Below, in pieces: positions 19,596 to 33,067 of a stretch of DNA of 64,000 nucleotides (position 1 is the stretch's first letter; each line of letters opens with the position of its first letter). The stretch comes from Spirochaetia bacterium (GTDB taxonomy: Bacteria > Spirochaetota > Spirochaetia > DSM-2461). The stretch spans positions 3,456,001 to 3,520,000 of the forward strand of contig OY764216.1 in assembly GCA_963668315.1 (NCBI GenBank), in the 5' to 3' direction. The translations under genes were made by a program, and so were the position numbers. Under the pieces are notes generated by a model, which saw only the letters and a list, made by a program, of their open reading frames with translations, made no database searches and had not been told where the DNA came from.

Positions 19596-21152
19596 GTGAA
19601 AATGTTCAGCAGGTTAAGATTAGGTTATGTCAAGACTGGTCTTGTAATGATGTGCGCCCTTATGGCTGCCAGCTTATTTGCCAATGGAAGCGAAGAGGTC
19701 GCCGGATCGGCCAACTCTGCCAAAACGAGAAAAATTTCCGTTATGCTTTTCGACCGTGGAAATGTACCCAATGAGGCGGGTACGATACAGGATAATAAAT
19801 GGACCAACTGGATTCATGATCAGATGATGGAGGCCTACAATATCGATGTCTCCTATTTCATCATGCCCCGAAGCGAGGAAATCGCGAAAGTTCCCATTCT
19901 CATGGCGTCCAATTCCGCCCCTGATATAACCTACCACTACGGTACGAATAACATTATCAACTGGTTCAACGACGGGGGGATATATGACCTGAACCCCTAT
20001 CTGTCACAGTACGGTCAGGACATCGTGGCCAATCTGGGCGACGACGTTCTCCTGGACGGCAGAACCACAGAGGGAGAGCAGTACGCCATTCCCACCAAGA
20101 GATCGACAATAACGAAATTCAACGTTTTCATCAGAAAGGACTGGCTGGATAAGCTGGGAATGGACGTTCCCGAAACGGTGGACCAGCTCTACACGGCGCT
20201 CAAGGCTTTCAAGGAAGAGGATCCGGGCCATGTCGGCAAAGACCAGGTCATTCCCTACTGGCCCGGCTATATGACGGAGTACTCCTTTCTTAAGAATACC
20301 GATCCCGCCTCCTATGCCGCCAGCTATGTCAACCACTGGCAGTATCTGGACCCCGGCTACAAAGACTCCCTTGAATGGCAGAACAAGCTCTATAACGAGG
20401 GGCTGATCGATCCCGAGTACTTTACCGACAAGGGTAACGCCCGGCTCAAGGAAGCCTTTGTTACGGGCAAACTCGGCTATTTCGAGCAGAACGTGAATTT
20501 TAACATGAAAACCAACTACGGCTCCCTTCTGAAAAATCTTCAGAAGAACGTGGATGGCGCCGAATTCGTTTCCATCGCCCCCATCCGGAATGTTAACGAC
20601 GGCAAGGTATATAATCCCGTTTATCCTCCCTCCGGCGGTCTTTCCTTCGTTCCCAAATCTTCCAGGAACCCCGAAGCCTGCGTGCAGTACATGAACTTCA
20701 TAGCCGGAGACGGCGGATTCCATGTCTATTTCGGTTTCGAAGGAGAGCATTACAACCTGGTGGACGGCGTTCCCGTGGCTATCGACGGAGATTATAATGC
20801 CCGCGACAAGGACTGGATCAACAACGATCTGGCGCTGACCTTCGGCATGACCGAGGAACTGTTCATCAAATCCGTTGTGAAATCCTTCCCCGGATATGAA
20901 AGCTATGTGGAAGATAACTATGCGAATGCCCTGGCTGGCGTTCATCTCAATGCCGACCACCAGCCCTACGACCAGGAAGTAAACGATCTATCCGCCGCGG
21001 TCAAGAAAGTTCACTCCGATTACCAGGTGAAGCTGATCACATGCAGGCCCGGTGAGTTCGATACCATCTGGAACGAATATCAGGACGAAATGGAAAAGGC
21101 CGGTTCGGACCGGATCATCGAATTAAGAAAGGCCATGTACGGTCTGGATTAA
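19596..21152 (+). CDS. ABC transporter solute-binding protein (LplA-like, oligosaccharide)
   Basis: Signal peptide with ANGSEE; IRKDWLDKLGMDVPETVDQLY motif; permease genes follow. Confidence 0.88.
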   Translation: MKMFSRLRLGYVKTGLVMMCALMAASLFANGSEEVAGSANSAKTRKISVMLFDRGNVPNEAGTIQDNKWTNWIHDQMMEAYNIDVSYFIMPRSEEIAKVPILMASNSAPDITYHYGTNNIINWFNDGGIYDLNPYLSQYGQDIVANLGDDVLLDGRTTEGEQYAIPTKRSTITKFNVFIRKDWLDKLGMDVPETVDQLYTALKAFKEEDPGHVGKDQVIPYWPGYMTEYSFLKNTDPASYAASYVNHWQYLDPGYKDSLEWQNKLYNEGLIDPEYFTDKGNARLKEAFVTGKLGYFEQNVNFNMKTNYGSLLKNLQKNVDGAEFVSIAPIRNVNDGKVYNPVYPPSGGLSFVPKSSRNPEACVQYMNFIAGDGGFHVYFGFEGEHYNLVDGVPVAIDGDYNARDKDWINNDLALTFGMTEELFIKSVVKSFPGYESYVEDNYANALAGVHLNADHQPYDQEVNDLSAAVKKVHSDYQVKLITCRPGEFDTIWNEYQDEMEKAGSDRIIELRKAMYGLD

Positions 21153-21159
21153 TCCAACA

Positions 21160-21186
21160 GGACGGGCGGATGCTTTCCGTCCGTCC
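21160..21186 (+). terminator. Intercistronic stem-loop after the binding-protein gene
   Basis: GGACGGGCGGA-tgctt-TCCGTCCGTCC. Confidence 0.55.
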
Positions 21187-21211
21187 TTACCCGCTTTAGA
21201 GGAGTTCATTA

Positions 21212-22159
21212 ATGAATAGAACCTTAACCGGAGGGGAGGGGATCGAATGGGAAAAAAAGACCCCTTTCTTCTATCTGAAAAGAGACAGCCTGCTCTATCT
21301 GCTTTGTCTGCCCGCCCTCATCTATCTTGTCATCTTCAAGTATATTCCCATGTACGGAATAACCATCGCCTTCAAGGATTACAACCTTTTCAAGGGAATC
21401 CTGGGGAGCGACTGGGCGGGATTCGTCTATTTCCATCAGATTTTCACCGATAGAAATTTCTGGCTGACCGTGAGAAACACCCTGGTCCTGAATCTTCTGG
21501 TGCTGGTCGTTTCCTTTCCCGCCACCATTCTTCTCTCCCTGTTCCTGAATGAGATCAGCAGCAAAATGTACAAACGGGTGGCCCAATCCCTTCTGTACCT
21601 TCCCCATTTCATCTCATGGGTCGTCGTCGCCGGTCTTCTGCAGAACCTTTTTTCCGTCAAATACGGTTCCGTAAACTATCTGCTGACCAATATGGGCATG
21701 CAGCCGGTGCCCTTTATGCTGGAAGAGAACTGGTGGATTTTCACGTATGTTCTCGCCCAGGTATGGAAATCCCTGGGATGGGGGACCATCATCTACCTGG
21801 CCGCCCTGTCCGGGGTCAACGAATCCCTTTACGAATCGGCCTATCTGGACGGCGCTTCCAAGGCCCAGCGGATGTGGTACATCACTCTTCCCTCCATCAA
21901 GCCGACCATTGTTATTATGCTGATTCTTTCCATCAGCAAGATGATGACCATCGGCCTTGACGCGCCCCTGCTCCTGCAGAACGCCAAGGTTCTGGACGTG
22001 GCGGAAGTTATCAGTACCTATGTTTACAAAATGGGACTGGAAAGGGTGCAGTACAGCTTCGCCACGGCCGTCGGACTGTTCCAGTCGCTTATCAACATTA
22101 TTTTACTTGTGCTGGCCAACGGCATCACCCGTGCCATGGGAGAGGAGGGAATCGTATGA
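21212..22159 (+). CDS. Carbohydrate ABC transporter permease (LplB-like)
   Basis: YLPHFISWVVV and EAA loop (YESAYLDGAS). Confidence 0.92.
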   Translation: MNRTLTGGEGIEWEKKTPFFYLKRDSLLYLLCLPALIYLVIFKYIPMYGITIAFKDYNLFKGILGSDWAGFVYFHQIFTDRNFWLTVRNTLVLNLLVLVVSFPATILLSLFLNEISSKMYKRVAQSLLYLPHFISWVVVAGLLQNLFSVKYGSVNYLLTNMGMQPVPFMLEENWWIFTYVLAQVWKSLGWGTIIYLAALSGVNESLYESAYLDGASKAQRMWYITLPSIKPTIVIMLILSISKMMTIGLDAPLLLQNAKVLDVAEVISTYVYKMGLERVQYSFATAVGLFQSLINIILLVLANGITRAMGEEGIV

Positions 22160-23058
22160 CAGGAATGCAAGGAAGAGCCCGGAGTTCCCTGAATGGGGAA
22201 AAAGTGGGATCGGGGCTGAATTATTTTTTCACCACCATCCTGGTTATCGCCTGTGTCTATCCCTTTCTGAATGTTATCGCCTATTCCCTCTCCAGCGGAA
22301 GGGCCATCCTTTCGGGGTGGGTCACATTTCTCCCCCGGGAGTTTCAGCTTGACGCCTATAAGGCTGTGCTGATGAAAAAGAGTATCTGGGATTCCATGGG
22401 GATTACCATATTCGTAACCTTTACCGCCACACTGCTCGGGCTGGTTCTGACGACACTGTCCGCCTACAGCCTTTCCAAGAAAAGGCTCAAGGGACGCTAC
22501 TTTATCTCCCTCCTTTTTCTTTTTACCATGTACTTCAGCGGAGGTATCATTCCCACCTTCATCGTTGTGAAGAACCTGGGCCTGATAAACCGCCTGGGCG
22601 CGCTGATACTTCCCAATGCTTTCAGCGTCTTCAATTTCATCGTCATGAGAACCTTTTTTCAGCAGCTTCCCGAAGAGCTGGAAGAGGCGGCGATTCTCGA
22701 CGGCTGCAATGACCTGGTGGTACTGGTCCGCATCATGCTTCCCCTTTCCATGCCCATCATGGCCACGATCGGGCTTTTCTATGCGGTAGGCCATTGGAAC
22801 GAATACTTCAACAGCATGATGTATATTAACGACCCCTCGAAATTTACTCTGCAGCTGAAACTCAGACAACTCCTTTTCACGGAGGAGCTAGCCCAGATGA
22901 GCGGGAATTTCGATCTAGTGGACGGGAACAATACCAGTATGCCCGAATCGCTTAAAGCCGCTTCCATCGTCATTTCCACCATCCCTATTATCGTTGTATA
23001 TCCCTGGCTGCAGAAGTATTTTGTCAAAGGGGTGATGATCGGTTCCATCAAGGGGTAG
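22156..23058 (+). CDS. Carbohydrate ABC transporter permease (LplC-like)
   Basis: FSGGIIP, EEAAILDG and YPWLQKYFVKGVMIGSIKG motifs. Confidence 0.92.
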   Translation: MTGMQGRARSSLNGEKVGSGLNYFFTTILVIACVYPFLNVIAYSLSSGRAILSGWVTFLPREFQLDAYKAVLMKKSIWDSMGITIFVTFTATLLGLVLTTLSAYSLSKKRLKGRYFISLLFLFTMYFSGGIIPTFIVVKNLGLINRLGALILPNAFSVFNFIVMRTFFQQLPEELEEAAILDGCNDLVVLVRIMLPLSMPIMATIGLFYAVGHWNEYFNSMMYINDPSKFTLQLKLRQLLFTEELAQMSGNFDLVDGNNTSMPESLKAASIVISTIPIIVVYPWLQKYFVKGVMIGSIKG

Positions 23059-23063
23059 AAAAA

Positions 23064-24206
23064 ATGGGTATAGGAGATATCTCAAAGGGAACCATAGTAT
23101 CGAGGAGAGACCCTCTGACCGGAGTGGAAGTAAGGAAGCTGACCGGGGATGAGGGGAATACCATTCATCCCTACTTCACCCAGCCGCTTTTTTCCGGCGA
23201 CGGGCGCTATCTGCTGACCGCTTCGGACCGGACCGGATCATGGCAGCTGTATACGCTGGAAATCAGGACGGGAGACATGGTGCAGCTCACCGACGACAGG
23301 GAGGTGGGATTCCAGTCCGCCCAGTTGGACGGAACGAATTTCATCGCCTATTACTGGAGCGGATCGGTGTTGAAATCGGTGGACTGCCAGACATTGAAAG
23401 GGGATGAGTACTACCGGGTACCCGAGGGGTTTCTGCCGGGAAGCCTTTCCATGACGAGTGACGGGAGATTCATTGATTTCTGCTATTCGGAAAAACTGGC
23501 CCTCAGTACTTATACGGGGAAGCTGTATTCCGATATGAAGGAGACCTTTTTCCGCAGGCCCTCATCCCTGGTCATGAGACTGGGGGTCGGTGATAAATCG
23601 GCTCAGCCTCTCTGGGGAGAAAGACGGTGGATAAGCCATATTATAACTAACCCGGCAGATAACAGGTTCGTCGTCTATAATCATGAAGGCCCATGGCACC
23701 TTCTTCAGAGGACATGGGTGATAAATGCCGACACCCTTGAAAATTACCCGATCGTCGAAACGAAAACACATTTTGAACGGGCCGGCCATGAGTTCTTTAC
23801 CCGGAAGGGAAATATCGTGACCCAGTATGGCTACAGAACATCTCCCGCGGATAAATACTGGAAATGCGCCGATCTCTTTATCAAGCCCGATGGAACCGGA
23901 GAGAGACGGTATGAGTATAAGCCGGGGGCTAAGTCAATGCATGTCCAAGTGAATTCCCGGGAGACCTTGGGAATCGCCGACGGCTATTTTGTCCCGGGGG
24001 GACCGGAGGACGGAAACAATTACATGTCCCTTGTCCGGTATGAAGAGGGACTGGCCAAACAGGAAATGCTCTGTGTTCACGGTACCTCCTGGAAAACGCA
24101 GCATTCCCATCCCCATCCCGTATTCACTCCCGATGACAAGTACGTCATCTTCGGCTCCGATATGGGAGGAAAGAGCAATGTCTATATGGCTCCGGCAGGA
24201 CAATAG
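23064..24206 (+). CDS. Oligogalacturonate lyase family protein (PL22-like beta-propeller)
   Basis: DPLTGVEVRKLT, HPYFT, NHEGPW, GHEFF and HPHPVFTPD motifs. Confidence 0.82.
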   Translation: MGIGDISKGTIVSRRDPLTGVEVRKLTGDEGNTIHPYFTQPLFSGDGRYLLTASDRTGSWQLYTLEIRTGDMVQLTDDREVGFQSAQLDGTNFIAYYWSGSVLKSVDCQTLKGDEYYRVPEGFLPGSLSMTSDGRFIDFCYSEKLALSTYTGKLYSDMKETFFRRPSSLVMRLGVGDKSAQPLWGERRWISHIITNPADNRFVVYNHEGPWHLLQRTWVINADTLENYPIVETKTHFERAGHEFFTRKGNIVTQYGYRTSPADKYWKCADLFIKPDGTGERRYEYKPGAKSMHVQVNSRETLGIADGYFVPGGPEDGNNYMSLVRYEEGLAKQEMLCVHGTSWKTQHSHPHPVFTPDDKYVIFGSDMGGKSNVYMAPAGQ

Positions 24207-24220
24207 GAAAGGGGAATAAT

Positions 24221-26260
24221 ATGAAAATTGATAGAAAAAGAGTCGTTCGCCGTCATAACCCCCGATACAGGGAGATGAATACCCAGGCTCCCCTGAGTGT
24301 GGGAAACGGGGAGTTCGCCTGTTCGGTGGACATAACGGGCCTTCAGAGCCTCTATACCCAGTATGACGAAGTTCCCCTCTGCATACAGAGTCAGTGGGCC
24401 TGGCACTCCTGGAGCCGTACTGAGGCTTTGTCCCCCGACAGGAGCGATCTTGCTCCGGTCATGGTGGAAACTCCCCAGGGGCGAAAGCCCTACTACATCA
24501 GTAACGCCGGACAGGAAGAGGAGTATGACTGGCTGAGAAAAAATCCCCATCGGCCCAACCTGGCAAAACTATCCCTTCGGTATGGAAAGGATTCTGAAAG
24601 CCTTTCTCCTGAGGAGGTAGATCAGGAGTTGGACCTTTATTCGGGAATTATCAGAAGTCGTTTTTCCGACCGGGGTAATGCTTTCTCCGTCAGAACGGCT
24701 TGTCATCCCTACAGGGATATCCTGTGTACGGAAATCACATGCTCCCGGGAAGAGAGCTATACCGTGGGGATCTCTTTTCCCTATGGGGATCCGGGGATCT
24801 CCGGTTCCGACTGGAACAGAGGCACTATCCATAGCACACGTGTGGCAAAGAGGGATAATAACCGACTCATTCTTGAAAGAGTTATGGATAACTGCCGGTA
24901 TTTTGTGAAAATAGACAGTAACGGAACTCTGCTGACCGACGGGATCGGGATGCATGAAATTGTTCTTTCCTTTCCTCAGGGGGGAGAACCCCTGACTATC
25001 ACTTGTTCCTTTTCCCCTGCCATAGATGGCGGGGAGAAAGATTCCGACCGGTCCGTATTTGAGGAAAGCGAAAGACATTGGTCCCGATTTTGGGAAAGGG
25101 GCGGTATCATCGATCTGGGAGATTCAACCGATTCCCGGGCAGGTGAGCTGGAGAGACGGACCATACTTTCCCAGTACCTGACAGCCGTACAATGTTCGGG
25201 CAGTGTCCCTCCCCAGGAGACGGGTCTGACTTGCAACAGCTGGTTCGGTAAGTTTCATCTGGAGATGCACTACTGGCATGCGGCTCATTTTCCCCAGTGG
25301 AACAGGCCCGAGCTGCTGGCCAGAAGTATGCCCTGGTATCTGAATCATAGGGACAGAGCGGAGGAACTTGCCCTATCCCAGGGATTCAAGGGACTCCGCT
25401 GGCCCAAAATGGTAGATTCCTCCGGCTATGACAGCCCTTCAAACATCGCCCCTCTGCTGATATGGCAGCAGCCCCATCCCATCATGTTCGCCGAACTCAT
25501 CTATCGGGCCCGTCCCGATCGGGATGTACTGGATCTGTACGCTCCTCTGGTACAGGGCTCGGCGGAATTTATGGCTGATTTTGCTTCTCCCGACGGGAAG
25601 GGCCGTTATTGCCTGGGGCCGGGTCTCATCCCTGCCCAGGAGAACCATCCTTATAGAATGGCCATGAATCCCACCTTTGAACTGGAGTACTGGAAATTCG
25701 GACTGGAAACCGCCAATCTCTGGAGACAGAGAAGAGGCCTTCCCCCGGAACCCCGGTGGGAGGATATCTGCCGTAATCTGGCCCGGCCGTCATCGGGAGA
25801 GGAGGGTTACTGGGCCCATGAACAGTGTCCCGGGACTTATACAGACTATAATTATGATCACCCCTCCATGATGTGTGCTTTGGGAATGCTGCCGGGAAAA
25901 CTGATTGACAGGTCAGCCATGAAGAGAACCCTTGATTCGGTAAAGAAATATTGGCGCTACGACAGACTGTGGGGATGGGATTTTCCTGTTATGGCCATGA
26001 CGGCCGCACGGCTGGGAGACGCTGAACAGGCGGTGGATTTCCTTCTGGCTCCGGGCGTGAAGAATATCTACCTGCCCAACGGCCATAACCGGCAGGAGGG
26101 GCGTAAAGATCTTCCCCTCTATCTGCCGGGGAACGGCGGGTTTCTCATTGCCATGGGAATGATGGCCGCCGGATGGGACGGCGCCGATGCCGTCTCGCCC
26201 GGTTTCCCGAAAAACAGGAACTGGCAGGTCCTATGGGAGGATATCCTCCCGATCGTTTAG
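24221..26260 (+). CDS. Putative six-hairpin glycoside hydrolase (GH65/GH95-like, specificity unknown)
   Basis: PLSVGNGEFA, PPQETGL..NSWFGKFHLEM, NPTFEL and WGWDFP motifs; lies in a pectin-type operon. Confidence 0.65.
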   Translation: MKIDRKRVVRRHNPRYREMNTQAPLSVGNGEFACSVDITGLQSLYTQYDEVPLCIQSQWAWHSWSRTEALSPDRSDLAPVMVETPQGRKPYYISNAGQEEEYDWLRKNPHRPNLAKLSLRYGKDSESLSPEEVDQELDLYSGIIRSRFSDRGNAFSVRTACHPYRDILCTEITCSREESYTVGISFPYGDPGISGSDWNRGTIHSTRVAKRDNNRLILERVMDNCRYFVKIDSNGTLLTDGIGMHEIVLSFPQGGEPLTITCSFSPAIDGGEKDSDRSVFEESERHWSRFWERGGIIDLGDSTDSRAGELERRTILSQYLTAVQCSGSVPPQETGLTCNSWFGKFHLEMHYWHAAHFPQWNRPELLARSMPWYLNHRDRAEELALSQGFKGLRWPKMVDSSGYDSPSNIAPLLIWQQPHPIMFAELIYRARPDRDVLDLYAPLVQGSAEFMADFASPDGKGRYCLGPGLIPAQENHPYRMAMNPTFELEYWKFGLETANLWRQRRGLPPEPRWEDICRNLARPSSGEEGYWAHEQCPGTYTDYNYDHPSMMCALGMLPGKLIDRSAMKRTLDSVKKYWRYDRLWGWDFPVMAMTAARLGDAEQAVDFLLAPGVKNIYLPNGHNRQEGRKDLPLYLPGNGGFLIAMGMMAAGWDGADAVSPGFPKNRNWQVLWEDILPIV

Positions 26261-26265
26261 GGCTA

Positions 26266-26667
26266 TTACTCTTCAATCCAGGAAACGGAGGGAGGGCTGT
26301 CGTCCAGGGGAAAATAGACGACGGCTCCCTTCTTTCCGGGAAGCCCTTCAAAGGTCAGCCGGATATTCCTTCCGGCGACCACTTGGGATTCGGCCCTGAC
26401 AACGATAGCCTTTTCCCAATCGGAGGCCGTCCCTTTCCAGGCCTTCTGCGCCTCGGAGAATGCGCGCCGGGAATACTCCGAATTCCTGTCTATATCCTGA
26501 TAGCCTCCGGCTTTGATGTCCCGGGACGGTTCGTTGACGGGCATTTCCACCGGCTGAATATTCCCCTTCTCTTTCTGAAAGCTATCTTCCTGCTTGCCGA
26601 AGGAGAACAGGGTAGCAGAGCCCAGCATCAGAAGAAAAATCAGGCATCCGGATTTGAGGCATTCCAT
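26266..26667 (-). CDS. Secreted cystatin-like cysteine protease inhibitor
   Basis: Signal peptide, conserved N-terminal Gly (AGG), helix, then SQVVAG (QxVxG); GGAGG RBS; overlaps the protease 3' end. Confidence 0.72.
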   Translation of the reverse strand: MECLKSGCLIFLLMLGSATLFSFGKQEDSFQKEKGNIQPVEMPVNEPSRDIKAGGYQDIDRNSEYSRRAFSEAQKAWKGTASDWEKAIVVRAESQVVAGRNIRLTFEGLPGKKGAVVYFPLDDSPPSVSWIEE

Positions 26668-28907
26668 GCGCTTCCCTCCTTGTAGCCGACGATCGTCTGG
26701 GCGTGGTTGGTGGTGGACCAGGTGTATCCCGACTGGAAAACATCATTGCTGTCCAGATGGTCGTAGAGGCCGAGGTCGGAAGCGGAACCGTCGCCGGCAT
26801 AAATCCCTGTTGTTACGATGTAGCCCATGGAAAGAAGGCTCTTCAACAGCTGGATATCGGCATCATCTTCAATGGAAAAATATCCGATTTGGTAGTTGTC
26901 CCAGTAGTAATGGCCCACCGTATCGCCTCTGTACTGAACCGCTTCACGCCAGGCCTCTTCCGTGGGCCATGTGGTGGAATCGCCGGTATCGTAGGGCATG
27001 GTATCCCAGGTGGCGCAGCCCTGACGCCGGAGTGTTTCAACGGCGTAAATATAGCTAGATCCGTTGTCAACGCCATTATTGATCTGGTGGTAAATAAAAT
27101 CGGGGCTGAATATTTTATCCAGTGAAGAGTCGGGAGCGCCTCCGCTGGAAAGGCCTAAGGAATCGGAATCCCAGGATACACCGGAAAGGTCCCAGCCGTG
27201 TTCTTTGGCTTCCATGAAGGTATGAATATAGTAAGCCGTGGAAAAGGCTACGCAGGAGCCCTCGCTGCCTTGATTTCCGATGGGAGGGAAGTATTGGGAC
27301 TCGGAGTAGTCCAATTCCAGAGGGAGATCGGCACCGTTGAAGGTCCCACCTCTCGTTGTGGTTTCTGTTTCTATGGAATCCAGGGAATAGACATTCAGCC
27401 ACTCTTCCTCCGTAGGATTGATCCAGCCGGTCCTGTAGCCGCCGGAAGAAAGGACGCCGTTATCATTGTTCTCTGGATTTTTTTTCAGTAAGCTTTTAAT
27501 TTCGTCATCGGATATTTCGGACAAGACCAGAGAGGCGGATTCGCTTAAAGAACGGGATGCGCTAATAGCAGAAAGATCTGTTTCAGATATATTATTTGAA
27601 GTTTCTATTTTGAATATGGAAGAGCTGCCTGCTGAAATAGTTCCCGTCGACGTTGATGTAAGCGTATCCAGTGCGGGATTACTGTAATCATCATAGAGCT
27701 CTACGGAAAAACTATTAATACTGCCTGATGTAGAACCTATATTCTCAGCATAGAGATAAAGATCGTAATCGTTGAGATAGGTTGCGAATTCTGTTATATC
27801 AAGTACTATATCATGGGACGGAAAATCCAAATCTCCACCTGCTGGAATATCGGATGTGTTACGTGTTTCAAAGGTTTTACTCAAGTAAAAATCTTCCGCA
27901 TTGGTGGGTTGCGTAGAAGAAATACCCAAGGTGATTTTCATATCATTTCTGTTTTCATGGGATACATTGAAAACGGCTACAGCCTTTGGTTCATAAACAG
28001 TATCGGCATCGTTGAAATAGAAAAAGACGAACATATTGTTCGCGATCATATCTTCGTAGTCCATCCAGTAATGGCCGTCGGCAATGTTTTCCCAATCTCC
28101 TTTACCCCAGGAATTGACTAATTTAAAGGCTCCGTTTTCAAGGCCGTTACCGCTGCTTACAATAACAACAGCCGTATCATCGGGTAGGGTAACATTATTA
28201 TCTTCATTTAACTCAGGAATGCTGTTTTCAGGATCAATGATAACACCCAGATAATAAATACCAGGAGTAAGGTTGGGACAAGTTAGGTTAATGAATCCCT
28301 CTGTATGGAAATTATTTTCCCCTAGAGAGATAGATGACATATTTACGGAAACTAATTCTACATCGGATGAATTGATATTTCTGTCCGGGGATAAGTAATA
28401 TTTAACAACACAATTGGATGTTGAATTGTTGCCGATATTGTTGATATAGGAAAACAGATCATATTCATCACCGACACTCACTATTGCGTCATCATCAAAA
28501 TAATTGATTCCCATCCATAATTTGTTTCCAGGATACATATCGGGCCTTCCGGAATAAGCGGAAACCGTACCTAAATCACGAGTCCAGGTGCTGTCTGAAA
28601 TATTTCTTACAATAACATGATCACCTAAGGTAAGAGTCACATCTTGAACAGAACCTATACAGGGATTCCATGTATTTCCTCCATCCAATGAATATTCCAT
28701 CTGGGAACTTGTTCCTAATAATTGTTGATTGATAACATCGAGGTAAGGGGTAGATTGAAGTGTCTCGTCAAAAATCGAGTCGAAATCATTCTCAGAATAT
28801 GTAATAACAGTGTCTTCAAAATAATCATTAGTGCCCCCGCCGTCAGGACAGGACACAAACAGCAGCAAAATCAAAAAACTGAAAAAAGAGAAAAGAATCT
28901 TTTTCAT
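26640..28907 (-). CDS. Lipoprotein C1A (papain-like) cysteine protease with permuted catalytic motifs and a CARDB/Ig-like domain
   Basis: Lipobox LFVSC; CARDB-like segment (YYLGVIIDPENSIPELNEDNN); AFKLVNSWG; NQGSEGSCVAF; FSPDFIY; NHAQTIVGY. GGAG RBS before ATG 28907. Confidence 0.85.
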   Translation of the reverse strand: MKKILFSFFSFLILLLFVSCPDGGGTNDYFEDTVITYSENDFDSIFDETLQSTPYLDVINQQLLGTSSQMEYSLDGGNTWNPCIGSVQDVTLTLGDHVIVRNISDSTWTRDLGTVSAYSGRPDMYPGNKLWMGINYFDDDAIVSVGDEYDLFSYINNIGNNSTSNCVVKYYLSPDRNINSSDVELVSVNMSSISLGENNFHTEGFINLTCPNLTPGIYYLGVIIDPENSIPELNEDNNVTLPDDTAVVIVSSGNGLENGAFKLVNSWGKGDWENIADGHYWMDYEDMIANNMFVFFYFNDADTVYEPKAVAVFNVSHENRNDMKITLGISSTQPTNAEDFYLSKTFETRNTSDIPAGGDLDFPSHDIVLDITEFATYLNDYDLYLYAENIGSTSGSINSFSVELYDDYSNPALDTLTSTSTGTISAGSSSIFKIETSNNISETDLSAISASRSLSESASLVLSEISDDEIKSLLKKNPENNDNGVLSSGGYRTGWINPTEEEWLNVYSLDSIETETTTRGGTFNGADLPLELDYSESQYFPPIGNQGSEGSCVAFSTAYYIHTFMEAKEHGWDLSGVSWDSDSLGLSSGGAPDSSLDKIFSPDFIYHQINNGVDNGSSYIYAVETLRRQGCATWDTMPYDTGDSTTWPTEEAWREAVQYRGDTVGHYYWDNYQIGYFSIEDDADIQLLKSLLSMGYIVTTGIYAGDGSASDLGLYDHLDSNDVFQSGYTWSTTNHAQTIVGYKEGSAWNASNPDA

Positions 28908-31356: not shown

Positions 31357-31374
31357 TACGTCAACGTTGACGTA
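31357..31374. promoter_or_regulatory. LacI-type operator candidate
   Basis: Perfect palindrome TACGTCAACGTTGACGTA between a minus-strand TTGACA-N17-TATTCT promoter and the lacI-type start. Confidence 0.65.
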
Positions 31375-31498
31375 CTCTGTGGGAAACAGAATAATTCATT
31401 TGCAGTTTCCTGTCAACTCGCCGTTCCTGAGAAAAAAAATAAATAATTTGAAAGTTGTGAGTATAATTTCCTATAATAATAAGCAGAGGTATTTCAAA

Positions 31499-33067
31499 AT
31501 GAAAAGTATCGTAATAAAAATCCTTTTTCTGACCATCGGGTCGGTCCTGGTTATTTCTCTTGCTCTCAGCACCTTTATGATATTTACTTTTATTCAAAAC
31601 AACAATGAAAACATTTCCATACTGGAAGAGAGTCTCAGGGACGATTTTGACAATCTGGTCAAGCTGGAAGTGGAAACGCAGATCTCTCTTCTGGAGAACC
31701 TGCACAAACTCTATCTCGACGGGGAATTTTCCGAAAGGGAGTGGCGAGAGCTTTCTGCCCATCTGTTGAGGGAAGCCCGTTATGACGGGGGCAACTATTT
31801 CTGGGCCGATACTTCCGATGGAACCTGTGTGGTCCTTCTCGGGCGGGATACGGAAGGTACAAACCGTATTAATTCACAGGACAACCGGGGCAATTCCTTC
31901 ATGCGTGATATCATCTCCAACGGTCTGGCCGGCGGGGGCTATTCCGATTATTACTTCCCCCGCGGGGAAGGGGGCGAACCTCTTCCCAAGCGGGCTTATT
32001 CTACCTATTTTGAGCCCCTGGACTGGGTTGTGGGAACGGGTAATTATGTGGATGATATCGATGTGATCATACAGGAAAAAGAGGATAATGTCCTTTCCTA
32101 TCTCAGGGGGCGGATTCTCATGGCCCTGATATTCAACCTCATCTGCCTCGGTGTTATCACGTTTCTCGCCGTATTTCTGGGCAAGCGTCTGGCTCTGCCC
32201 GTCATTAAGGCGACCGAACTGGCCGGTCTTCTCTCCGAGGGGAATCTGCGTGACCGTGTGGAAGGGTCATTCAATAAATCGAAAGATGAGACGGGGCGTC
32301 TTTTTGTGGCTCTGGATAATATGACCGATAATCTCTCCCTGATCATCACTTCCATAAGGGATTCGTCGGAACAGGTGAAGTCCGGTTCCGTGCAAATCTC
32401 CCAGACCACCCAGCAGCTTTCATCGGGGGCCACCGAACAGTCTTCCAGCGTGGAGGAGATCTCTTCGTCCATGGAGGAGCTGACAGCCAATATTCAGCAG
32501 AATACGGCCAATTCGAAGGAAGCGGACAGGATCGCCGTTACCGTGGCGGAAGAGGCGGCCAAGGGCGGAGAGTCGGTGGAAGCAACCGTAGCGGCCATGA
32601 GAAGCATCGCCGAGAAAATTACCGTGATAGAAGATATTGCCAGGAATACGAACATGCTTGCGCTGAATGCCGCCATTGAGGCCGCCAGGGCAGGGGATGC
32701 GGGAAAGGGATTCGCCGTTGTCGCTTCGGAAGTCAGGAAACTGGCGGAAAATTCGGGAAAAGCCGCAAAGGATATTATTGAGATATCCACCACCAGTCTG
32801 GATATCGCGGAACAGGCGGGACAGATTATCGTTGATCTGGTTCCCCAGGTGAGGAAGACATCGGAGCTGATTCAGGAAATCACCACGGCCAGTGAGGAGC
32901 AGTCCCGGGGGGCTGAACAGATAAATGCGGGCATACTGCAACTCGACACGGTCATACAGCAGAATGCCTCCTCATCGGAGGAACTGGCCGCCATGGCGGA
33001 GGAGCTGGAGGGACAGGCTTCCCTTATGCGTGAAAATGTTTCTTTCTTTACCTTGAAGGACGACTGA
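31499..33067 (+). CDS. Methyl-accepting chemotaxis protein with Cache sensor domain
   Basis: TM-Cache-TM-HAMP layout and [38 protein letters not shown] signalling motif. Confidence 0.93.

Follow-up and report, generated by a model that had tools for sequence, protein, structure and literature searches.

The DNA considered here is a 64,000-nucleotide stretch of the genome of a Spirochaetia bacterium (assembly GCA_963668315.1, contig OY764216.1, positions 3,456,001 to 3,520,000; hereafter the window), whose reverse strand carries two overlapping genes. The upstream gene encodes a predicted lipoprotein peptidase of the papain family (C1A) in which the parts of the papain fold stand in permuted order. 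The downstream gene encodes a small, predicted exported protein that profile and structural model identify as a cystatin. The cystatin likely inhibits the protease whose gene it overlaps, so that the two would form a cognate protease-inhibitor module. The features of the locus are the following.

26640..28907, reverse strand: gene of the permuted C1A (papain-family) peptidase, a predicted lipoprotein of 755 amino acids, from sequence, Pfam, homologues and model
28848..28907, reverse strand: predicted signal peptide and lipobox LFVS-C20, from the sequence and a pattern recurring in permuted homologues
28191..28481, reverse strand: CARDB (Ig-like) spacer, residues 143-239, Pfam PF07705 at E 2e-8
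28008..28136, reverse strand: displaced C-terminal papain piece with the catalytic Asn265 (NSWG), residues 258-300, aligned to the post-His part of the homologue P0081
27672..28001, reverse strand: beta-sandwich domain, residues about 303-412, which follows the papain domain in normal-order relatives
27327..27542, reverse strand: former N-terminal propeptide, now internal, residues about 456-527, aligned to the N-terminus of P0081
26643..27326, reverse strand: papain core (mature start through His strand), with Gln546, Cys552 and His735, equivalent of the cathepsin L heavy chain
26675..26681, reverse strand: Shine-Dalgarno motif AAGGAGG of the cystatin gene, from the sequence, with the same layout in loci L002 and L003
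26266..26667, reverse strand: cystatin gene (I25-type, single domain, predicted exported, 133 amino acids), from open reading frame, profile and model
26503..26508, reverse strand: N-terminal trunk G54-G55; all 20 family members share the first Gly, and 15 of 20 have GG
26371..26385, reverse strand: first hairpin QVVAG (QxVxG), Q95-G99, a turn between two strands in the model
26305..26313, reverse strand: second hairpin FPL, F119-L121, at the position of the plant-cystatin PW by alignment to VWVKPW

The junction between the two genes is compact. The cystatin reading frame starts 28 nucleotides inside the 3' end of the protease frame and is served by its own ribosome-binding site, both as a preliminary description of the sequence had stated; the site lies 7 nucleotides ahead of the ATG. 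The AAGGAGG motif sits inside K-E-G codons of the protease, and the conserved K-E-G-x-x-W codons of the enzyme spell both the ribosome site and the start codon of the cystatin. The same junction, with its 28-nucleotide overlap, is found again in genomes G001 and G005. Compared with the G001 homologue, the cystatin gene differs 28, 30 and 52 times at the first, second and third codon positions, and a different codon is used at 20 of 45 conserved residues. Because changes pile up at third positions and synonymous codons differ, the small reading frame is a real gene. A promoter and terminator scan gave nothing diagnostic: it called 10 promoter-like sites where 4.6 were expected, and 3 terminators where 3.1 were expected.

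The cystatin consists of an N-terminal hydrophobic signal, a low-complexity linker and the cystatin domain from about residue 50. As a single sequence it falls under the Pfam cut-off (E 0.086, 13.6 bits against 22.2), so the family assignment rests on profile and fold. The profile, built from 20 homologues at loci beside the protease, matches cystatins first in the PDB, potato multicystatin leading at E 2e-11, followed by sialostatin L2, stefin A and cystatin C; individually, 7 of the 20 members match PF00031 at E of 0.1 or less. The model, with a predicted local distance difference test score (pLDDT) of 87.5, packs a helix on a curved antiparallel beta-sheet. The best VIA-align match is cystatin F (Z 10.1, root-mean-square deviation (rmsd) 4.1, 83 residues aligned), and 1yvb_I (Z 9.1, rmsd 2.6, 82 aligned) and cystatin E/M (Z 8.9) also match. 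The top Foldseek rows are cystatins, none at E 0.001, and the model does not show the beta-barrel of staphostatins and potempins. The cystatin fold first suggested from the motifs is thus borne out by profile and structural searches. Single-sequence searches returned one relative only, and matches in the ESM Atlas are cystatin clusters, all under 0.9 and useful as a lead only. A search of 1.84 billion representatives gave 3011 matches at E of 0.001 or less, led by multi-cystatin proteins; these carry no genomic context and were not used for linkage. NCBIfam has no model for either the cystatin or the protease.

The elements read from the 133-residue protein at the outset, namely the signal, the GG, the helix, QVVAG and FPL, are all present in the places listed above. 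Among the 20 family members the first hairpin reads QVVAG in 13, QIVAG in 4, and QVIAG, QVVSG and KTVAG in one each, so that Q-x-[VI]-x-G is kept in 19 of 20. The only conserved positions of the family are the trunk Gly and QxVxG, the two elements that block the active site. Where type 2 and plant cystatins have PW, the protein has FPL; stefins also lack PW.

The protease carries its catalytic motifs in the order NSWG (N265), QGSEGSC (Q546, C552) and NHA (H735, 20 residues from the end). N265, S266, W267 and G268 are invariant in 37 of 37 aligned homologues, and Q546, C552, H735 and N265 are invariant in the aligned permuted homologues (sets of 37 and 53). The homologue search found 155 proteins, and typing and anchor counts cover the 120 listed, of which 76 are permuted, 41 are in normal order and 3 cannot be typed. 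Normal-order relatives are 37-38% identical to the protease. One of them, P0081, aligns as two swapped blocks, its residues 22-287 with 458-744 and its residues 266-483 with 224-455 (E 4e-48 and 5e-34), which puts the cut into the loop that joins the His strand to the Asn strands. A papain fold is seen in the model, which spans residues 251-755 (pLDDT 90.3, predicted template modelling score 0.92). The model matches xylellain best (3ois; Z 16.0, rmsd 3.1, 203 aligned) and procathepsins at Z 13-14, while residues 1-175 of 1icf_A, the cathepsin L heavy chain, align end to end with 528-751 (model 278-501; Z 13.5, rmsd 2.6).

The propeptide of this enzyme has become internal, since the segment at residues about 456-527 aligns with the N-terminal end of P0081, with the pro-region of procerain B (E 4.7e-5 for the stretch) and with zymogen structures. 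A variable loop at residues 516-522, modelled with low confidence, lies directly ahead of the mature start. Xylellain, Cwp84 (4ci7), Lpg2622 (6a0n) and cathepsin L (1icf) share with the protease the papain fold, the Gln, Cys, His and Asn residues and a prosegment (Z 11-16), but all are in normal order, whereas here the Asn strands and the beta-sandwich precede the propeptide. In place of the propeptide-Cys-His-Asn order of C1A peptidases the order is Asn-propeptide-Cys-His. By its sequence and alignments the protease is a true circular permutant, a variant and not a typical member of C1A. The membrane-anchored permuted papain of the preliminary description is therefore upheld by the lipobox Cys20, by NSWG standing before QGSEGSC and NHA, and by the swapped P0081 blocks. 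The CARDB spacer is an accessory that varies within the family, other homologues having other domains there or none. The beta-sandwich matches known structures at Z 5-6.6 only, namely PLAT/C2-like domains, a carbohydrate-binding module and the furin P-domain. With the closest listed relative, P0004, the protease shares 92% identity over its signal, 50-60% across the middle (residues about 27-455, window 27500-28850) and 86% in the Cys/His core. The pattern suggests either a gene of mosaic origin whose middle was exchanged or weaker constraint on that part.

The association of the two genes was counted from both sides. A cystatin profile search of 401 Spirochaetia genomes gave a match in 23, and in 20 of these the cystatin gene adjoins a C1A gene on the same strand at -86 to +23 nucleotides; such conserved adjacency to a protease gene is a trait of operon-encoded inhibitors. 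Ten of the 23 cystatins belong to the training set of the profile; among the 13 outside it, 10 adjoin a C1A gene. Related genomes are not independent, so the linkage counts carry no p-value. In genome G000 the genes of the module are the only matches to either profile. The neighbours are 13 permuted proteases and 7 normal-order C1A enzymes, the latter with Pfam matches at E 2e-11 or better and gaps of -14 to +15 nucleotides, and the cystatin lies upstream of the normal-order gene in 5 cases and downstream in 2. Since these partners of C1A-Fn3 type occur in both orders, what the cystatin follows is the papain domain rather than any single accessory domain or gene order. Across 15 linked pairs the divergence of protease and cystatin is correlated (Mantel rho 0.47, p 0.016), which shared descent alone could explain.

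The second pairing is found at loci L194, L195, L196, L198, L201, L202 and L203, spread over several Spirochaetia families, with normal-order C1A enzymes of which several carry Fn3. A cystatin specific to the permuted enzyme was considered and rejected on these seven partners.

Counted from the protease genes, loci L001-L179 contain 161 close-family open reading frames, which grouping at 90% identity reduces to 114 clusters. A cystatin lies directly downstream in 20 of the 56 permuted clusters, and in 1 more it comes after a tandem pair of which the cluster is the first member; 6 are too short downstream to tell, and L162 and L167, typed as permuted only by their end after the His strand, may be truncated normal-order genes. 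None of the 58 normal-order clusters, 31 of them with enough downstream DNA, has a downstream cystatin. In a quick tree, used descriptively, a branch with support 98 has all cystatin-linked rows to one side, together with 17 unlinked rows, including Riflebacteria; the Thermotogota enzymes, none linked, lie outside. Among 24 Spirochaetia genomes with a permuted enzyme, 13 have an adjacent cystatin, 3 a cystatin elsewhere and 8 no match, with 12 candidates scored per genome and many assemblies incomplete. The pairing is not obligatory. The co-occurrence expected at the outset thus holds when counted from the cystatin, 20 of 23 adjoining a C1A gene, and fails as an exclusive bond, since the pairing is not confined to the permuted enzyme and many permuted enzymes lack a cystatin.

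Some of these loci have unusual arrangements. In G001 (L021 3896-7651) two tandem permuted proteases without CARDB are followed by one cystatin, and directly upstream lies a methyl-accepting chemotaxis gene that resembles the gene at window 31367-33067. Permuted C1A proteins of up to about 2000 amino acids, which carry long arrays of repeats in their N-terminal part and have no cystatin gene beside them, occur in Riflebacteria and in Mesotoga/Kosmotogaceae (L033, L035, L036, L039, L024, L043, L045, L046, L047, L114 and kin). One Riflebacteria genome holds four permuted C1A proteins, and no cystatin match was found in five genomes with the long proteins that were searched whole.

Cystatin fold, permuted papain and conserved adjacency together support the protease/inhibitor module that had been proposed from the sequence. 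Both genes would be co-translated, the ribosome site of the second lying within the last codons of the first, and both proteins exported. The protease would emerge as a zymogen composed of lipid anchor, spacer, Asn strands, beta-sandwich, propeptide and Cys/His core. Cystatins block papain through the trunk and the first hairpin (PMC7863939), and the Gly trunk and QVVAG hairpin of the window protein would likewise wedge into the cleft of an enzyme activated early or in the wrong place. Inhibition would then protect the cell's own envelope, and inhibitor genes coupled to exported proteases are an established precedent (PMC3462683, PMC9890683). The simplest guess at the role of the protease is nutrient proteolysis at the cell surface. 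Complex prediction gave 0.69, 0.00 and 0.04 in three runs against a mark of 0.32, with no folded controls and a protease chain that kept its cleft-covering prosegment, and is evidence neither way.

A reason for the permutation is suggested by the anchors. Among the 120 listed homologues, a simple regular-expression pattern finds a lipobox in 61 of the 64 permuted proteins that have a signal. Of the 28 normal-order proteins with a signal none matches strictly and 4 match loosely; proteins without a recognisable signal (12 permuted and 13 normal-order) are set aside in this count. The 3 permuted proteins that fail the pattern still show a Cys after a hydrophobic stretch. A C-terminal hydrophobic helix is found in 15 of 41 normal-order proteins against 0 of 76 permuted ones, and 7 of the former group carry a type IX secretion tail. 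In these sequences, permutation tracks the switch from C-terminal to N-terminal lipid anchoring almost perfectly. In a normal-order papain with an N-terminal lipid, removal of the propeptide would cut off the anchor as well; the permuted order would keep the enzyme tethered, because the anchor sits on the Asn chain. Excision of the internal propeptide would give an enzyme of two chains, like the two-chain form of cathepsin L; the lipid-anchored Asn chain would hold on to the Cys/His chain. Permutation would in this way let an N-terminally lipidated papain be activated without leaving the membrane. This two-chain tether is slightly favoured over its absence.

The alternative that survives best keeps the inhibitor and changes the activation step only, and it is compatible with the cognate module: the prosegment would never be excised and would be displaced reversibly, the permutation being a neutral product of tandem duplication. 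Tandem copies, the usual route to permutation, exist in G001; the best structural match, xylellain, is aligned from residue 27 and so includes part of its prosegment, and the model packs the prosegment at high confidence. The near-perfect coincidence of permutation with the change of anchor and the variable, low-confidence loop directly ahead of the mature start argue against it, and an uncut prosegment is judged rather unlikely.

Several observations weigh against the cognate module and the account of its anchoring. The second hairpin is variable in the family, mostly DL or xP, and PW occurs in 0 of 20 members; this loop aids binding in cystatins and does not block the catalytic pair (PMC7863939). 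A lipobox-like Cys is seen by eye in 16 of 20 family members and is absent from the window copy, so the window protease, which has a lipobox, and its cystatin may reach different compartments. Three of the 23 cystatins (G073, G099, G323) stand alone with a C1A gene elsewhere in the genome, and two further stand-alone copies came from other searches (G008, G416). No cystatin lies beside 29 of the 50 permuted clusters with at least 600 nucleotides of downstream sequence, and the 8 of 24 permuted-enzyme genomes without a cystatin match mostly retain intact catalytic motifs where these are legible. The anchor correlation depends on a simple pattern, the seven normal-order neighbours of cystatins lie outside the anchor typing, and the permuted and normal-order groups also differ in taxonomy.

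Part of this evidence could be read as favouring a cystatin that helps the protease fold, be exported or mature, or that is a stable subunit without inhibitory function, its fold serving as a binding module. Tight linkage is explained equally well by such a helper, a packaging role in toxin systems of bacteria has been suggested for cystatin-like domains (PMC12419801), and the second hairpin is divergent. What makes a helper improbable is that only the trunk Gly and QxVxG, both of which block the active site, are conserved, and that many permuted proteases have no cystatin neighbour, from which it follows that the cystatin is not required for their folding. Equally improbable is a cystatin that merely rides in the protease cassette and defends against foreign papains of protists, animal hosts or competitors, as the breadth of cystatins as C1A inhibitors, the host targets argued for in PMC2784779, the scanned Bacteroidota neighbours without C1A and the five stand-alone spirochaete copies might suggest, for it leaves unexplained the overlap with two C1A subfamilies, in both gene orders, in 20 of 23 cases.

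Beyond the spirochaetes, 17 of 301 genomes from the phylum to which a Bacteroidales genome belongs contain a cystatin match, as does 1 of 104 from another phylum. Peptidase_C1 was found in none of 40 scanned reading frames near non-spirochaete cystatins (of 78 listed within about 1.5 kb, one locus being from a third phylum), so papain linkage as a general property of bacterial cystatins is not supported. In two genomes of the Bacteroidota sample, signal-less stefin-like genes lie about 300-380 nucleotides downstream of a subtilase (S8) gene (L247 1-1764, L250 1-1761). Exported cystatin-like genes follow a Leu/Phe-tRNA protein transferase gene at L237, L238, L240 and L244, and in two of these four the cystatin-like gene lies before an ArsA ATPase gene. 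The stand-alone homologue of G008 (L184 1426-1806) is a lipoprotein with QVVDG and a weakened trunk and is possibly decaying or retargeted, judging by its motifs.

Around the module in the window, a convergent forward-strand cluster at 19596-26260 ends 5 nucleotides from the cystatin stop and holds a sugar ABC transporter, an oligogalacturonate lyase-like gene and a GH95-like hydrolase. Upstream of the protease lie a Gfo/Idh/MocA oxidoreductase and a LacI regulator. These flanking sugar-utilisation genes give no functional clue, because the G001 and G005 loci do not share them.

Cystatin control of papains is a textbook eukaryotic system, and Spi, a bacterial inhibitor of a papain-fold protease, is a homologue of a propeptide, unlike the window cystatin. 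The window cystatin resembles the I25 cystatins (PF00031; Kordis and Turk 2009, PMC2784779) in fold, trunk Gly, QxVxG, single small domain and signal peptide. It differs from them in lacking PW and disulfides and in adjoining the gene of its own C1A peptidase. The staphopain/staphostatin (C47), SpeB/Spi (C10) and Bacteroides Bfp/Bfi and Btp/Bti systems likewise encode an exported papain-fold protease together with a small inhibitor, both exported and often lipoproteins in the Bacteroides pairs (PMC3462683, PMC7863939). Here, by contrast, the protease is C1A and permuted, and the inhibitor is a cystatin and not a beta-barrel of staphostatin type. The KLIKK peptidase/potempin pairs of Tannerella forsythia also place a small exported inhibitor beside a protease gene, for protection of the cell surface. 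Potempins are beta-barrels directed at serine and metallopeptidases and encoded upstream, whereas the window cystatin lies downstream of a cysteine peptidase (PMC9890683). Circular permutation within the papain-like fold is known from NlpC/P60-LRAT, PPPDE, OTU and LupA, and in OTU-type domains, as in the window protease, it is a permuted strand that bears the third catalytic residue. The permutations usually recognised displace the Cys helix, unlike that of the window protease (PMC10318531).

Kordis and Turk (2009) reported bacterial cystatins and stefins, with nothing but stefins listed for Spirochaetes. Section 19 of that paper holds bacterial cystatins unlikely to regulate bacterial cysteine proteases and names hosts as targets, and its main text does not use the word operon (PMC2784779). 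The 2023 classification of papain-like proteins, in its available text, places permutations in other clusters, treats the cathepsin cluster as canonical and gives no permuted C1A with an internal propeptide (PMC10318531). The 2023 papain survey of Kordis and Turk, as far as its text could be consulted, does not analyse multidomain prokaryotic C1A enzymes or mention permutation (PMC10380794). Cystatin-like folds in toxin systems are the subject of PMC12419801 and of bioRxiv 10.64898/2026.10.19.760177, whose accessible parts do not deal with protease/cystatin pairing. A description of C1A/cystatin pairing, or of a C1A permutation with an internal propeptide, was not found in literature that mostly excluded subscription papers, supplements and MEROPS, so an earlier mention is possible. 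The preliminary description had known of no account of the pairing. That stands in part: the linkage to an own C1A gene was not found in print, and a 2009 paper had already described cystatins from bacteria (PMC2784779). Both protein families and protease-inhibitor operons are thus known; no printed account of the combination or of the permutation was found.

Overlapping cystatin and C1A genes across Spirochaetia contradict, for this lineage, the view in the available text of PMC2784779 that bacterial cystatins are aimed at hosts and are improbable regulators of bacterial proteases. It is likely that bacteria keep proteases of their own in check with cystatins, and not only those of a host. 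The full account, in which spirochaete cystatins are cognate inhibitors of their own C1A peptidases and form the first bacterial papain/cystatin operons, together with an internal-propeptide permutant that gives a lipid-held two-chain enzyme, is held to be about as probable as not. The question of cognate inhibition becomes testable with two small recombinant proteins. The protease itself is a natural C1A permutant cut at the loop where cathepsin L splits into its heavy and light chains, and it offers a testable reason for circular permutation, namely that an activated zymogen may be kept on its N-terminal lipid anchor.

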